Origin: a virus
Taxonomy: Duplodnaviria; Heunggongvirae; Uroviricota; Caudoviricetes
DNA length: 39,834 nt
Direction: 5' to 3' (one strand)
Virus record (IMG/VR): IMGVR_UViG_2563366858_000008
A model generated the notes under the pieces. That model had not been told where the DNA came from. It searched no databases and saw only the letters and a list, made by a program, of their open reading frames with translations. A program made the translations under genes and the position numbers. Of this stretch, positions 2,399 through 34,809 are shown piece by piece (within the stretch, counting starts at the first letter, position 1; the number at the start of each line of letters is the position of its first letter).

Positions 2399-2696
2399 GT
2401 TTAGACCTCGATATTTTGAAAATCTGAACAACGTTACCGCGTGTTTTAATAACCGCGGCAAGCATGACAGCGTTGATAATGACCTCAGATAAATCCACAG
2501 CCATTGGCGTGCGTAACCAGATTGCATAGACGACACGAACAGGAATACTGGCCGCAGCAACAATAAGGAAATAAGCAAGCCACCCTCCCCATCTTCGATG
2601 TTGAGAGCCGTTACGCCGGAATGTGACAACGCGAATTGCTATGCCAGTACAAATAACTGCATTGGTGATAAGCAAAAAAAACTCATGCGTTACCAT
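2388..2696 (-). CDS. Small membrane protein in lysis cassette (holin-like or antiholin)
   Basis: 102 aa with 2-3 hydrophobic helices; GGGGAG RBS; overlaps holin stop and ends at endolysin start. Confidence 0.5.
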
Positions 2697-3087
2697 CGTC
2701 TTTTCTCCCCGGAATTAAATCGCGTGGATTGTCTGAACGGTGGTAAAGCCATATACCAATACGCACAGCGACAATTGCTGACACGAATGCGCCAGCAGAG
2801 AAAACAATCCCTTTTTCAAAAGAGTCCTGCGTGATGGTAGGGATCAGGCTGGCTATGCCGATAAGAATTGATGCTGCTGGTTTGTAGAAAAGAAGTCCGC
2901 AGAGAAAGCTAAGCATCGATAAGAGTACGCGACGATGAATTGGGTACTCTACCGCAGAGGTAACAAAAATTACCGCACCAGCCAAAGACCCTAAAGCAAC
3001 CTCAGGAGGAACTCCTGCTATAACCGCAGCAAGAGAACTCATACTAAGCCATTGATTTAAAGATTCGCTGGTTAGCTGAACTGACAT
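2683..3087 (-). CDS. Holin
   Basis: About 134 aa with three predicted TM segments and charged C-terminus; GGTGG RBS before ATG 3087; upstream in-frame GTG at 3096 could give a dual start. Confidence 0.65.
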   Translation of the reverse strand: MSVQLTSESLNQWLSMSSLAAVIAGVPPEVALGSLAGAVIFVTSAVEYPIHRRVLLSMLSFLCGLLFYKPAASILIGIASLIPTITQDSFEKGIVFSAGAFVSAIVAVRIGIWLYHRSDNPRDLIPGRKDDGNA

Positions 3088-3190
3088 AAAGACCACCGTT
3101 TAATGTGCATGAAGCCCCACTTAGTTAGTGAAATAACACACATATTAAACCATATATGAATCACATTTAAACGGATAACTCTTCACGAAA

Positions 3191-3205
3191 TTACCCTATA
3201 GGTGA
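3191..3205. promoter_or_regulatory. Operator-like inverted repeat TTACCCTATAGGTGA (1 mismatch to TTACC-N5-GGTAA) upstream of the acetyltransferase gene
   Basis: 37 bp upstream of ATG 3242 in AT-rich promoter region. Confidence 0.4.
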
Positions 3206-3241
3206 TATCATTGGGTTATCCTATTCAAAACGATAGCAATT

Positions 3242-5182
3242 ATGTCTTATTTAAAATACAGAACAGATATTGATGGGCTGCGAGCTATTGCGGTTTTGCT
3301 GGTCGTGCTGTACCACGCAAACTTTCCTATTCATGGTGGTTTTATTGGTGTAGATGTTTTTTTCGTCATATCAGGATATCTCATTACCAACATCATATAT
3401 AAAGAGACTAAAAGAAATATTTTTTCATTCCTTAATTTTTACAAACGTCGAATAAAGCGATTGCTCCCAGCTTTTGCTTTTCTTCTTTTATTTTTATTTG
3501 TTTACTGCAAATTATATTTGATGCCAGATGAACTTATATCATTCTCTAAAAGTGCGGTATACGCTCTTCTTGGCATAAGCAATTTCTATTTTTTTAGTGG
3601 CACAGGTTACTTTAACTCAACCTCTTATGAACCGCTTTTACACACATGGTCGCTTTCCGTTGAAGAGCAGTTCTACATTGTATGGCCTTTCATCGTTTTC
3701 ATGCTCGCTCGGAACTCAGGGACAAAAAAAGCAATAATAATATCCTCATTACTATTTATTGTATTCCTTGGTATTTCACAGTATGGAGCAGTTAATTATA
3801 AAACAGCAGCGTATCTCCTACTGCCTTTTAGGTTCTTTGAGTTGCTCTCAGGTGCCCTACTTGCTATCTATAAAGATTCAATAACAAAACATCTGCGCCA
3901 CGGTTCTGTAATTTCACTGGTCGGCGTAATGCTGATTGTGTTGAGTTCATTATTTATAAATTCTAACACGCCATTTCCTGGGTTCACTGTTTTGCCTACA
4001 TGTTTAGGCGCTGTAATGCTTATTGCTGCAGGTGACTCATCCAAAAACTTCATTTCTAAAGTGCTGTCTTTAACTCCAGTTGTTTATGTAGGAAGAATTT
4101 CCTACTCTCTTTATTTATGGCACTGGCCTGTACTGATTCTTGCTGAATACAGGGGGATCGATCTTACGGCCTTAAATGCGACGGCGCTCATACTTATCGC
4201 ATTCATCATGGCAAGCATAAGCTATCACTTCGTTGAAAAGCCATTTAGGAAGGATTCGCTGCAATATTTCAGGACTGCATTTATAACCATCTACCTGATA
4301 CCATTAATAGTATCCGCTGCCTATGCAGCGTACATTTTAAAAAATGATGGTTTTCGCGCCAAAAGTTCAGAGTTAGTATCTGAATTAGAAGAGAGAAACG
4401 CGACAAATATTATGCGCCCACAGTGTATTGATAAATTATTTATCGGTAATGTAAATGACTGTCATCTTGGCGTTAATAAAGGCGAAGTAGATGGCGTGCT
4501 TCTTGGTGACTCCTTTGGTAATGCATATGCTTACTTTATTGATGAACTTGCGAAAGATGCTGGAATATCAATAACAGATACTACATATAGCTCAACACCT
4601 GTAATATCAGGAATTTATGTGCAGGATATCAGGAATAAGATATCTGACATAGATGCTAACCTGATAATGACATATACAAAAAACAGGCTGGAGTATGCAG
4701 CAAAACAAAAGTTCGCGATAATTTCCGTTTTTTGGGATCAGTACGGGCCACAAAATAATTACTTCCGTATCTTCGATAAAAACGGTGACGTATCGGAGAA
4801 TGCTTACCAGTTGCAATCTGAAGCAATAAAATATCTGCTGTCCAATGGCGTGAAAGTTTACATCATTGCAAGACCTTACCAGTCTATTGGCCCTGCTGCG
4901 ATAAACAAACTGCGCCAAATTAAGCTGCGGCATGGGGATGTAACTACTGAAAAATATGAATACGGCGTAAAGAAAGATGATCGGATAGAATACAAGTTAA
5001 AGCAGGAGTTCCCTCAGATAACGCTAATCGATCCTAACGATGTACTTTGCCACAAAGGGGAATGTGATGCCATCGTGGATGGAAAGATCATTTTCAGAAC
5101 TGATGGTTCACACCTGAATGCTGTTGGAGCAAAAAAAATCGGGGAAGAGTATTTGAAAAACTACGCAAACCCATTTCGATAA
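3242..5182 (+). CDS. O-antigen O-acetyltransferase, acyltransferase-3 membrane domain plus SGNH domain (OafA/Oac-like); lysogenic conversion
   Basis: N-terminal multi-TM domain with conserved YRxDIDGLRAIAV...H motif; C-terminal GDSFG (SGNH) motif; 646 aa; AT-rich relative to neighbours. Confidence 0.85.
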   Translation: MSYLKYRTDIDGLRAIAVLLVVLYHANFPIHGGFIGVDVFFVISGYLITNIIYKETKRNIFSFLNFYKRRIKRLLPAFAFLLLFLFVYCKLYLMPDELISFSKSAVYALLGISNFYFFSGTGYFNSTSYEPLLHTWSLSVEEQFYIVWPFIVFMLARNSGTKKAIIISSLLFIVFLGISQYGAVNYKTAAYLLLPFRFFELLSGALLAIYKDSITKHLRHGSVISLVGVMLIVLSSLFINSNTPFPGFTVLPTCLGAVMLIAAGDSSKNFISKVLSLTPVVYVGRISYSLYLWHWPVLILAEYRGIDLTALNATALILIAFIMASISYHFVEKPFRKDSLQYFRTAFITIYLIPLIVSAAYAAYILKNDGFRAKSSELVSELEERNATNIMRPQCIDKLFIGNVNDCHLGVNKGEVDGVLLGDSFGNAYAYFIDELAKDAGISITDTTYSSTPVISGIYVQDIRNKISDIDANLIMTYTKNRLEYAAKQKFAIISVFWDQYGPQNNYFRIFDKNGDVSENAYQLQSEAIKYLLSNGVKVYIIARPYQSIGPAAINKLRQIKLRHGDVTTEKYEYGVKKDDRIEYKLKQEFPQITLIDPNDVLCHKGECDAIVDGKIIFRTDGSHLNAVGAKKIGEEYLKNYANPFR

Positions 5183-7444: not shown

Positions 7445-7600
7445 GTTAAATCTCCAGATAGTCGCAGCACCCGTTGCGCCGCATATCTGGTTATTCTATT
7501 ACCTGAAAAACCATATATGGATGGAAAGAGTGTTAATGTGAGCAGATATTACCTTTCAGGTGATTCGCAAAACGTGCTGGATAGCAAACAAATTATCTGC

Positions 7601-7620
7601 TACTGTATAAATATACAGTT
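7601..7620 (+). promoter_or_regulatory. LexA (SOS) box
   Basis: TACTGTATAAATATACAGTT matches CTGT-(A/T)8-ACAG; lies 20 bp upstream of the moron start codon. Confidence 0.75.
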
Positions 7621-7639
7621 ATTGCATGGAGAAGATAAG

Positions 7640-7897
7640 ATGCAGCAGTATCACTATCCACTGAAAGAGGGATTTACCGAAAGGATTCACACGCCGGGAG
7701 GCGTCAGGTCACTGGTGGAAGGATCGCACTTGATGAAATTACTCCGGGATCTCGATAAGGATGGATTTAATGTCGATGGCCCACTTGCCGAACTGACTGC
7801 ACTGATTAACTACGTCACCAGCTCACAGATGTCTATGCAGGATCTGCAAACACATCTCGACTATTGTGCCGAACAATTACGAAAACAAACCCGGTAA
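7640..7897 (+). CDS. Small SOS-regulated moron protein, unknown function (candidate antirepressor)
   Basis: GGAGAAG RBS 5 nt before ATG 7640; 85 aa; the track's longer ORF from 7517 would contain the LexA box. Confidence 0.6.
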   Translation: MQQYHYPLKEGFTERIHTPGGVRSLVEGSHLMKLLRDLDKDGFNVDGPLAELTALINYVTSSQMSMQDLQTHLDYCAEQLRKQTR

Positions 7898-24345: not shown

Positions 24346-24413
24346 ATCAATGACTCCGTACGCAATTAAATTATTACCAATTTAACCACATATGATTTAT
24401 TTATCGTAGATAG

Positions 24414-24450: not shown

Positions 24451-24772
24451 CCAAAGAGTTCATTCCGGTTACTAACCTGACTGGCTTGTCGTTAAATTGA
24501 ACAGGTGGAGTGAGCTTTTATTTTGAGCAGTACGGCGTATGGCACATGCGCCGATAGCGGTCTGGATACGTTTAAGGGGCACCCTCCCTTGCTCGGGCAA
24601 ACGAACCAGGTAGCCGGAATGTGCAAGTCGAGCGGTTTTATTCCGCGCACGGGGATTCACCATCCCGGCGATTCGGTGTGACGCCTCGGAAGAGACGAGG
24701 GTACAACGATGAGAGCATTTATGGAGCCGCGACAAAGTGTGGTGCCTTAACAGGCTAAGTGCTCTCAGCGTT

Positions 24773-31446: not shown

Positions 31447-31474
31447 TTAAAAACCACATAAGACACGAAATCAA
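31446..31474 (-). promoter_or_regulatory. Candidate sigma70 promoter for the nin-like operon
   Basis: Minus strand TTGATT, 17-bp spacer, TTTAAT; flanked by operator-like repeats at 31432 and 31494. Confidence 0.4.
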
Positions 31475-32331: not shown

Positions 32332-33167
32332 AAGAAATCCTCCCACGCTTCAGGGCTGTTCCAGTGCGGAACGTTGTTATCAGGTAATGTTGATTGCTTC
32401 TGTCTGCTAATCTGCAGCCGCCTTCCCAGCTTCTGCTCCCACTGTGCCTGATGGTATGCCTTACCCTCAGCCATCCAGTAAATTCTGAACTCTGCAAGTT
32501 CCTGTGCCGTTGGCAGACTGTCCAGGTAGATCCCCTGCAATGAGCTTTTCCGAAGAAAGTCATCTGATGGTTGCCATTGTTCATGCATGACAAATTTGCC
32601 TAATTGCCCTGGCCCACCAGGAGGAACAAAGTTATTCATCACGGCGTTGTTTGCGCCGGGGTCATGAGGCACAGAATCCCCGGTTTTTGTCCTGCTCTCC
32701 CTCTCTTGGTTAAATGACTGGTTATATGACTGGTTCTGGATCCCGTTTTTGGGATCATTCAACATCCCGTTTTTGGGATCATTCAACATCCCGTTTTTGG
32801 GATCATTCAACATCCCGTTTTTGGGTATATTCCCGTTTTCGGGAACATTACCGTTTTCGGGTTCATTACGTCCTTCTAGGTTGCCTTTAATGTTCCCTTT
32901 TTTGGTTATATTAAGAGAGAAAACCCGCACTCTTTTCGTCGCTCCCTTTCTCTCTCCGGTATCTGAAATAAGCCCCATTTTCATGAGCGATATAAGCCCG
33001 GCCTGCACGGTTTTTTTATTCAGGCAAGTGTCTTTAACGAGGCGTTCTATGCTGGGGTAGCAGAGGTTATATTCATCGGCTCTGTCAGCCATCGAGAGCA
33101 GTATGAGCTTTAATGACGAGCTACCTGGATCTGTCTCCCAGGCCCAATCTGTTGCATGTCTGCTCAT
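32328..33167 (-). CDS. Replication initiator O-like, with internal origin iterons
   Basis: N-terminal helix-turn-helix-like region; central NGMLNDPK x3 repeat encoded by DNA iterons; directly upstream of P-like gene. Confidence 0.7.
   Translation of the reverse strand: MSRHATDWAWETDPGSSSLKLILLSMADRADEYNLCYPSIERLVKDTCLNKKTVQAGLISLMKMGLISDTGERKGATKRVRVFSLNITKKGNIKGNLEGRNEPENGNVPENGNIPKNGMLNDPKNGMLNDPKNGMLNDPKNGIQNQSYNQSFNQERESRTKTGDSVPHDPGANNAVMNNFVPPGGPGQLGKFVMHEQWQPSDDFLRKSSLQGIYLDSLPTAQELAEFRIYWMAEGKAYHQAQWEQKLGRRLQISRQKQSTLPDNNVPHWNSPEAWEDFL
32741..32866. repeat. Origin-like iteron array inside the O-like gene
   Basis: Three exact 24-bp units TCCCGTTTTTGGGATCATTCAACA (32741, 32765, 32789) then three degenerate 18-bp units, each with a CCCG-T(4-5)-GGG dyad; AT-rich stretch follows. 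Confidence 0.75.
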
Positions 33168-33182
33168 GATTAATCTCCGCTA

Positions 33183-33383
33183 TCAGCTTGAGTGTTGTGG
33201 GGAGGAATTAATCATGATCTGCTTAATCTCTGCCCTGATGCGACGGTTTGATTCCATGGTGCACTCAACACAGTGTCCGTTGTAAACCCAGCGTTCACTG
33301 TCATGTCCGTGCTTACATGGTTTTCCGGTGTAGTAGCGTTTAAGTCCGCGCTTTGCGGCATCAATACGTGTAATGATTTCCAT
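33183..33383 (-). CDS. Small zinc-binding protein
   Basis: Start MEIITRIDAAKRG at ATG 33383; CKHGH...CVEC motif; 66 aa. Confidence 0.45.
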   Translation of the reverse strand: MEIITRIDAAKRGLKRYYTGKPCKHGHDSERWVYNGHCVECTMESNRRIRAEIKQIMINSSPQHSS

Positions 33384-33463
33384 GGTAAGCCCTGTTATTA
33401 GTATTGGGATTACGGTTATTTTGTGCTGACACAAAAAAAAGATCAACCAGATTTGGTTTTTTG

Positions 33464-33478
33464 TTACCTTTTAGGTAC
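33464..33478. promoter_or_regulatory. Operator-like repeat TTACCTTTTAGGTAC (1 mismatch)
   Basis: Between the terminator after the cro-like gene and the next gene. Confidence 0.45.
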
Positions 33479-33480
33479 GA

Positions 33481-33511
33481 ATAGATATGAAAAGACCGCC
33501 GGATGGCGGTC
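33481..33511 (-). terminator. Intrinsic terminator after the cro-like gene (tR1-like position)
   Basis: GACCGCC-atcc-GGCGGTC followed by TTTTCATATCTAT on the minus strand. Confidence 0.65.
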
Positions 33512-33533
33512 TACAGAGGGTTGTGGCTGGATA

Positions 33534-33764
33534 TCATGAGTAGAAGAAGTACGCCAGTTCTGCTTTTGAGCGCAGCCATCGTCTTGTTTTACAGGCTTTA
33601 AAAAGCCCATTCATCAATACCTTACCTGGCATTTTGCGCTTACCTGTTAAGTGAGTCTGGATATAGTGACTCGTCGTTCCGGCTTCCTGTGCGAAGGCTT
33701 CACGCTCATCCGGAGTAAGTGCAAGCCAGTGTTTTTTGAAATCGAAATGTCCGTTATCGCTCAT
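33534..33764 (-). CDS. Cro-like small regulator
   Basis: 76 aa; divergent from the repressor gene across the three-site operator region. Confidence 0.5.
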   Translation of the reverse strand: MSDNGHFDFKKHWLALTPDEREAFAQEAGTTSHYIQTHLTGKRKMPGKVLMNGLFKACKTRRWLRSKAELAYFFYS

Positions 33765-33800
33765 AGCTATTGCCTGATATTTATTTCAGATAATAAATAT

Positions 33801-33815
33801 TCACCCATAAGGTAA
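33801..33815. promoter_or_regulatory. Operator site TCACCCATAAGGTAA (1 mismatch)
   Basis: First of three sites in the cro/cI intergenic region. Confidence 0.55.
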
Positions 33816-33831
33816 CAAAAATCAAGGATAG

Positions 33832-33846
33832 TTACCCATGGGGTGC
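33832..33846. promoter_or_regulatory. Operator site TTACCCATGGGGTGC (2 mismatches)
   Basis: Middle site; 17 bp centre-to-centre from the next. Confidence 0.45.
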
Positions 33847-33848
33847 AT

Positions 33849-33863
33849 TTACCTGTTGGGTAA
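33849..33863. promoter_or_regulatory. Operator site TTACCTGTTGGGTAA (perfect)
   Basis: Third site of the tripartite operator. Confidence 0.65.
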
Positions 33864-33918
33864 TATTGCTTTAAATTGAATCATCTACTGATTCATATAT
33901 GAGGCGATTTTCCAGAAA

Positions 33919-34503
33919 ATGAAAAGTATCCAGGACGTCCGCAGGCAAAATCTCAACGACTTGATCGACCGTGAATTCAATGGTGTTCAGACGCGGATGG
34001 CAGAAAAACTTGGAACTCAGGCAAATCTGGTAAACCGCTGGGCTCTTGGCAAGAAGGTTATCGGCGACCAGGTTGCGCGAAAAATTGAAGCTGCCGCCAA
34101 TAAACCCCGTAACTGGCTTGATATCGATCGCTCGCTTTCTCAGGAAGGTTTTCAGCCTGTCGGCCCAAGCGACATTGGTCAGCTGGCGGCTCACAACCTG
34201 GAACGCTGGATGAGCGAAAGCCGCGACCTTTCAACACAGGGAAAACTTCACCGCGCATCCGGCGTCGCCCAGGTGACAATCAGCCGCCTGTTAAACAATG
34301 AGGTCAGCGTTTCCATTTCCACCCTGGAGAATGTTGCATCCGCATTCGGGCGTCACGGCTATGAATTACTGATTCACCCGCACGACCCTGCGACTATCAA
34401 CTATGACCGCTCGCGCTACGCATTGTTACCCGAAACAGAGAAGGCAAAGATCGAAAGTTACATTGAATTTGTCATCAGCCAGAACGAAAAAAACAAACAA
34501 TAA
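33919..34503 (+). CDS. Prophage repressor, tandem HTH (XRE-type), no autocleavage domain (cI-like)
   Basis: Two HTH-like segments (QTRMAEKLGTQANLVNRW and ASGVAQVTISRLL); 194 aa, no room for an S24 peptidase domain; divergent from cro-like gene. Confidence 0.7.
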   Translation: MKSIQDVRRQNLNDLIDREFNGVQTRMAEKLGTQANLVNRWALGKKVIGDQVARKIEAAANKPRNWLDIDRSLSQEGFQPVGPSDIGQLAAHNLERWMSESRDLSTQGKLHRASGVAQVTISRLLNNEVSVSISTLENVASAFGRHGYELLIHPHDPATINYDRSRYALLPETEKAKIESYIEFVISQNEKNKQ

Positions 34504-34523
34504 AATCATATTTTTCAGTAAGT

Positions 34524-34550
34524 AAGCCGCCTCATGGCGGCTTTTTTATT
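34524..34550 (+). terminator. Intrinsic terminator after the repressor gene
   Basis: AAGCCGCC-tcat-GGCGGCTT followed by TTTTTATT. Confidence 0.75.
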
Positions 34551-34560
34551 GCCAGCAAGA

Positions 34561-34575
34561 TTACCTTATGGGTAA
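34561..34575. promoter_or_regulatory. Operator site TTACCTTATGGGTAA (perfect)
   Basis: Upstream flank of the early-left promoter. Confidence 0.65.
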
Positions 34576-34594
34576 TTTTTTTAACTCATATCTA

Positions 34595-34622
34595 TTGACA
34601 TCAAACCAGATACGCATAATCA
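34595..34622 (+). promoter_or_regulatory. Early-left promoter (PL-like)
   Basis: TTGACA, 16-bp spacer, TAATCA; bracketed by operator sites at 34561 and 34623. Confidence 0.55.
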
Positions 34623-34637
34623 TTACCTCAACGGTAA
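34623..34637. promoter_or_regulatory. Operator site TTACCTCAACGGTAA (perfect)
   Basis: Immediately after the -10; would cover the transcription start. Confidence 0.65.
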
Positions 34638-34656
34638 CAGACCGAGGTAACAAATT

Positions 34657-34809
34657 ATGCAGTGGAAAATCATCAACGGTTGGTACTGCGTTACTGCATG
34701 CGGATTCATGAGCTGGAAGTTCCGCACCTTACAGGAAGGCATTAAGTGGGCTTTCGTCAGCAAAGAAGCTCGCGATGTGGCCAACGATAACGAGATATGG
34801 GAGGGCTGA
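34657..34809 (+). CDS. Small first gene of the early-left operon (50 aa)
   Basis: GAGGTAA RBS 6 nt before ATG; Trp-rich peptide; below the ORF-track length cut-off. Confidence 0.4.
   Translation: MQWKIINGWYCVTACGFMSWKFRTLQEGIKWAFVSKEARDVANDNEIWEG

Follow-up and report, generated by a model that had tools for sequence, protein, structure and literature searches.

The 15-bp dyad TTACCCTATAGGTGA at positions 3191-3205 is, judged by its match to a phage-wide consensus and its retention in relatives, a genuine and evolutionarily conserved copy of the prophage repressor operator, to which the repressor Rep would be expected to bind. It lies in a 39,834-nucleotide stretch of DNA (the window), a phiV10/epsilon15-like (Uetakevirus) prophage, where it is placed in a 145-bp divergent intergenic region and inside the spacer of the promoter predicted for an acyltransferase gene. 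We think it rather probable that the operator of the 194-aa Rep-family repressor is fused to the acyltransferase promoter and that bound repressor lowers transcription with incomplete occupancy. The operator family and the repressor are already known, and it is this copy, its fusion to a promoter and its association with cargo genes that are absent from the annotation examined.

The window is 81-93% identical to phiV10, Tyrion, PAT1, and other Uetakevirus phages over 2600-3212, where the match ends, and over the immunity region (33100-34800) its identity to phiV10 is 98%. Gene order is common to the window, phiV10, and Tyrion: Rz, endolysin, holin, a minus-strand membrane protein, a short intergenic region, a plus-strand O-antigen acyltransferase, and a convergent tailspike. 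The features of the locus are as follows.

2683-3096, minus strand: first gene of the lysis cassette, membrane protein or putative holin, homologue of epsilon15 gp23 (Pfam Phage_holin_8; phiV10 and Tyrion annotation)
3148-3158, plus strand: m2 box AACCATATATG, 32 nt left of the operator, conserved
3182-3187, plus strand: predicted -35-like hexamer TTCACG of the acyltransferase promoter, a consensus match, weak and not conserved in relatives
3191-3205, no strand assigned: operator core TTACCCTATAGGTGA (sequence match, position weight matrix (PWM), conserved in orthologous loci)
3203-3211, plus strand: predicted extended -10 TGaTATCAT (TG 3203-3204, TATCAT 3206-3211), a consensus match
3242-5182, plus strand: cargo gene encoding a 646-aa AT3 plus SGNH acyltransferase, OafA/OafB-type O-antigen acetylase-like (Pfam)

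The 646-aa ORF matched Acyl_transf_3 (PF01757) at 1.7e-37 and SGNH (PF19040) at 2.7e-27, and the position of its gene is that of oac in phiV10. Of 5426 complete E. coli genomes, 8-9 had exactly the acyltransferase cassette of the window. No RNA family was found when 2900-3400 was scanned against Rfam with E values up to 1.

Matches to TTACC-N5-GGTAA with at most one mismatch numbered 13 in the window (seven perfect and six with one mismatch) versus 0.62 expected, and none of 100 shuffles reached 13. The probability of such a site in the 145-bp intergenic region was about 0.002. The credible copies were intergenic in every case; they cluster round the repressor gene and overlap two predicted early promoters. 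Those other than the dyad under study, none assigned a strand, are given below.

7549-7563: lone operator, GGTGA variant, between the antirepressor and tailspike genes (consensus match)
24436 and 33464: intergenic operators
27583 and 27601: intergenic operators
31432 and 31494: intergenic operator pair
33801-33815, 33832-33846 (two mismatches), and 33849-33863: immunity-region operators between the cro-like gene and rep (consensus match)
34561-34575 and 34623-34637: operator pair, 62 bp apart, bracketing a strong rightward early promoter, TTGACA-17-AATCAT

At the main lytic promoters the operators come in pairs separated by 62 bp or in groups of three. At the rightward early promoter (34595-34623) one operator lies over the start and the second is 62 bp upstream. 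In both the 31432/31494 and the 34561/34623 pair the centres are exactly 62 bp apart, a spacing also found at the orthologous pairs of phiV10, epsilon15, PAT1, and Tyrion (63 bp for one BUCT711 pair). SPC32H Rep is described in PMC9638917 as a tetramer that binds palindromic sites, and a single repressor tetramer, spanning two dyads on one face of the helix, would fit the 62-bp pairing. The 3191 site is without a partner: none was found at spacings of 17, 18, 31, 48, or 62 bp with up to two mismatches allowed. The one-mismatch sequence CTACCGCAGAGGTAA at 2949-2963 was considered as a partner and rejected, as it lies 242 bp away inside the holin-like gene, is absent from phiV10, and is probably a chance match. 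A GGTGA/TCACC half-site variant occurs at three operators, and it always faces the non-late gene: the acyltransferase at 3191, ant at 7549, and the cro-like gene at 33801. The same orientation was seen at the orthologous conversion-gene and cro-side sites of other genomes.

The genome encodes the expected binding protein.

33919-34503, plus strand: repressor gene, 194 aa with two HTH domains, homologue of SPC32H Rep

This repressor is 99.5% identical to phiV10 gp40, its Pfam matches are of the HTH_3/XRE type, and it matched the SPC32H Rep structure (PDB 5D50 chain A) with E = 4e-42. The operator motif brackets the repressor gene, which makes the prophage repressor its natural binder, and from this distribution of operators we infer that Rep would bind 3191-3205. 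The putative recognition helix NLVNRW of the N-terminal HTH is invariant in repressors down to 43% identity overall, and thus the half-site is common to the whole genus. Six complete genomes have one half-site at positionally equivalent places with repressors 43-78% identical, and hence there is no variation for a covariation test. A 90-aa ORF (7625-7897) is an antirepressor homologue (PDB 5D50 chain E, E = 7e-47) and is directly preceded by a consensus LexA box, TACTGTATAAATATACAGT, at 7601-7619. As homologues of Rep and Ant and the LexA box are present, the prophage has the whole Rep/Ant/LexA switch. Note that the program-made ORF list places the ant start too early, at 7517.

The initial annotation had described the dyad as an operator-like site with one mismatch located 37 bp upstream of the conversion gene, and these particulars were accurate. 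The ATG is at 3242, which leaves 36 nt between and puts the beginning of the start codon 37 bp past the last base of the site. The single mismatch holds on either count: as a self-dyad with a 5-bp centre, four of the five outer pairs are complementary, the exception being T2:G14, and relative to the phage-wide TTACC-N5-GGTAA consensus there is G for A at position 14. The 17-mer at 3190-3206, ATTACCCTATAGGTGAT, has one mismatch to ATTACC-N5-GGTAAT (11 of 12 specified positions match). With a PWM derived from 54 perfect-core sites in six genomes, which gave 0.18 sites above 12 bits in shuffled sequence, the site scored 18.9 bits. This made it eighth of the 11 credible sites in the window and the top imperfect site, a ranking that derives from perfect cores only and gives no measure of affinity for the GGTGA variant. 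A 7-bp inverted repeat round the operator (GGATAAC at 3173-3179 and GTTATCC at 3215-3221) was discarded, as its right arm is not kept in the close relative FT130.

TTCACG-18 nt-TGaTATCAT is the only consensus-type promoter in 2600-3400 and has a predicted start at about 3218. The operator fills the spacer of this predicted promoter, and the GGTGA half-site provides the TG of the extended -10. The centre of the dyad, 3198, is therefore at about -20 from the predicted (unmapped) start. The predicted -35 and -10 elements flank the dyad, and the earlier placement of the site within the conversion gene's promoter region is supported. The cro-side leftward promoter (TTGTTA-17-TATTAT) has operator 33801-33815 in its spacer, the same arrangement as at the acyltransferase promoter. 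An extended -10 directly past the operator was also found in FT130, phiV10, Tyrion, PAT1, and a Citrobacter braakii prophage; in epsilon15 it lies 3 nt earlier as TGgTAAAAT, and it has decayed in a Citrobacter werkmanii prophage that has no divergent gene. A point against the acyltransferase-promoter model is that the -35 is weak and not conserved, the predicted promoter being a consensus match only.

The intergenic regions of eight genomes were aligned (the window, E. coli FT130, phiV10, Tyrion, epsilon15, PAT1, and the two Citrobacter prophages). In this alignment AAATTACC, five variable bases and GGT(G/A)A form a conserved island. The 25 nt to the left of the operator are variable, and the right-hand DNA is unrelated among these genomes because the cargo gene differs from phage to phage. 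The genes at this locus are:

phiV10: oac (338 aa)
Window, FT130, Tyrion, and PAT1: AT3-SGNH genes, 619-646 aa
Epsilon15: genes 22/21
C. braakii prophage: 62-aa ORF

The C. werkmanii prophage keeps the operator beside a co-directional 392-aa gene and has no divergent gene, which suggests that the operator has another target, additional or alternative, on the lysis side.

The association with cargo was also seen in a set of 80 IMG/VR loci having 50 distinct upstream regions, in which divergent cargo was scored when the nearest ORF of at least 70 aa was divergent. The operator was present at 7 of 11 divergent-cargo loci versus 4 of the 39 others (Fisher p = 8e-4), and TGn-TAnnnT abutted the operator in 10 of the 11 operator-bearing loci. 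Four of the 11 divergent-cargo loci are without the operator, indicating that it is dispensable for cargo expression. In Klebsiella phage BUCT711 there was no gene between the tailspike and the lysis cassette, and no operator was found there. By eye, one of the four operator loci that lack divergent cargo (L025) has an apparent remnant of a truncated acyltransferase N-terminus. In another locus (L013, E. coli HCP4S3_I4), the IS5-family element ISKpn26 is inserted about 5 bp past the predicted acyltransferase -10 (about 3216 in the window) and parts the operator and promoter from the acyltransferase gene.

In the model that we favor, Rep bound at 3191-3205 would occlude RNA polymerase at the acyltransferase promoter, because the operator lies in the spacer and the TG comes from its half-site. 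A lone one-mismatch operator would probably be occupied incompletely, and in the lysogen the acyltransferase would have low, basal maintenance expression. Full expression would occur just after infection, before Rep accumulates, or upon induction, when Ant removes Rep. In classical epsilon15 work antigen conversion is said to have occurred within minutes of infection, for lytic and lysogenic outcomes alike, and such rapid conversion would agree with an early, repressor-sensitive promoter. Given the geometry of the predicted promoter, the repressor most likely dampens the conversion gene rather than activating it. Full repression is unlikely because phiV10 Oac is reported to protect its host, the site is without a partner, and it carries the GGTGA variant. 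In work cited in PMC9782041, Oac is described as modifying the O157 antigen and protecting the host. As Oac acts in lysogens, the gene cannot be strongly repressed there, and the model requires that occupancy be leaky.

It is unlikely, although compatible with the acyltransferase-promoter model and not exclusive of it, that the operator chiefly serves the leftward lysis cassette and that its overlap with the cargo promoter is secondary. We rank such control second. In this scheme the divergent cargo would sever the lysis genes from the late operon, and these genes would have their own promoter, silenced by the repressor in the lysogen. The distance from the operator to the lysis gene start is fixed at 105 bp in phiV10, epsilon15, PAT1, and Tyrion, and that to the acyltransferase start in PAT1 is 380 bp. 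Moreover, the 3191 operator is one of four modules of operator plus m2 box, all directed at lytic gene blocks, and the C. werkmanii prophage keeps both elements without a divergent gene. However, the best candidates for a leftward promoter are about 50 bp off, which puts the operator near -63 to -70, where it would not be occluding, and the sole leftward -10 that overlaps the operator (TAATTT) has a poor score. In loci without cargo, the m2 box and leader are kept but the operator is gone.

The m2 box at 3148-3158 lies in the spacer of the predicted leftward lysis promoter (-35 at 3170-3165 and -10 at 3147-3142), whose start is predicted near 3135. The window has exactly four copies of the m2 sequence (AACCAYATAWG, with the palindromic core CCATATATGG), all on the plus strand.

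3148-3158, 7509-7519, 24384-24394, and 31452-31462, plus strand: m2 copies

Read along the late-gene strand, each module consists of the operator, 29-41 nt, C(A/T)TAT(A/G)TGGTT, and then a lytic gene block, these blocks being the lysis cassette, the tailspike, the head genes, and a DUF1064 gene. The pairing of operator with m2 and their spacings are conserved in phiV10, epsilon15, PAT1, Tyrion, and BUCT711, and three of the four modules have a -10-like hexamer 7-10 nt past the m2 box. A phage transcription factor may act at the m2 box. CRP, IHF, and LexA were considered as the binder of the box and set aside, as no consensus match was seen by eye.

A Cro-like protein could instead be the chief user of the 3191 site and shut off the conversion gene in lytic growth with negligible occupancy by Rep.

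33534-33764, minus strand: gene of a 76-aa Cro-like protein, divergently adjoining the operator cluster

In lambdoid switches Cro and repressor share operators, and the position of the cro-like gene beside the operator cluster suits this idea. However, the 76-aa protein is without a Pfam match, and the geometry of the site cannot tell a Cro-like protein from Rep. We regard such a role as quite improbable.

The initial annotation had proposed that the repressor might activate the conversion gene from the 3191 site, giving lysogen-specific expression. The operator-type site and its place in the conversion-gene promoter region stood, whereas activation is unsupported and, in our estimation, very improbable. 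It would suit a conversion function, given that phiV10 Oac acts in lysogens, and with its poor predicted -35 the promoter could in principle need help. However, the site is centred near -20 of the predicted promoter and overlaps the extended -10 TG, rather than lying at about -42, the position from which the lambda repressor activates PRM. An identical arrangement is present at the cro-side lytic promoter, which must be off in the lysogen. Moreover, the repressor is of the HTH_3/XRE type rather than a MerR-type activator that binds within the spacer.

A chance match in AT-rich intergenic DNA, which had been raised since there is a single imperfect copy and of which the coding match at 2949-2963 is a probable example, is hardly credible at about 0.002 expected in the interval, and is ruled out by orthologous copies in at least seven other phages or prophages, where the half-sites are conserved across genera amid unalignable flanks.

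Several of these elements have counterparts in known systems. The epsilon15 RefSeq record (NC_004775.2) annotates seven ATTACC-N5-GGTAAT sites as 'protein_bind: repressor', and these share the consensus of the window and, like its operators, are spread among a number of intergenic regions (terminase, head genes, tail fibre, both sides of the repressor gene, and the replication/RuvC region). Epsilon15 has a further copy upstream of conversion genes 22/21, TTACCATATGGGTAA at 24704, which is a perfect 15-mer although its 17-mer begins with T rather than A. This copy and its overlap with the conversion promoter are absent from the annotated repressor sites. Like SPC32H (PDB 5D50 and 5D4Z), the window has homologues of Rep and Ant, and a LexA box precedes its ant gene. 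The lambda operators OR1 and OR2 at PR and OL at PL resemble the 3191 site in that a dyad lies across the -35/-10 interval, where it would keep RNA polymerase out. Unlike the lambda operators, the 3191 site is single, lacks a cooperative neighbour, and belongs not to a lytic operon but to an accessory cargo gene. P22 gtrABC, like the window gene, is a prophage-borne O-antigen modification locus with its own promoter, but gtr is controlled by Dam/OxyR phase variation (PMC7380047) and not by the prophage repressor. No report of Rep control of O-antigen conversion genes was found in the sources consulted.

The present evidence extends the known operator set and reveals no new mechanism. The usual assumption is that lysogenic conversion genes are expressed regardless of the lysogenic state or in positive coupling with it. 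If Rep sits on the acyltransferase core promoter, surface modification by these prophages of E. coli, Salmonella, and Enterobacter would be linked to the lysis-lysogeny switch in the reverse direction, with expression peaking on infection and SOS induction and limited in the stable lysogen. Serotype expression, superinfection immunity, and phage-receptor availability would then be affected in O157 and other hosts. More tentatively, the operator and extended -10 could form a portable cassette that puts O-antigen conversion cargo under direct control of the master repressor, a proposal that we find possible but doubtful. In that event several unrelated cargo genes in different phages would be so controlled, conversion would be a function of early infection and induction that is throttled in the stable lysogen, and O-antigen modification would increase in the SOS response through the Rep/Ant/LexA switch.

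An operator-like site, TTACC-N5-GGTAT, was also observed between the Rz and integrase genes, near attP, in five of five complete phage genomes (L003 at 26870, L004 at 10746, L005 at 26882, L006 at 28568, and L007 at 12620). Its equivalent in the window would sit just past the right end.
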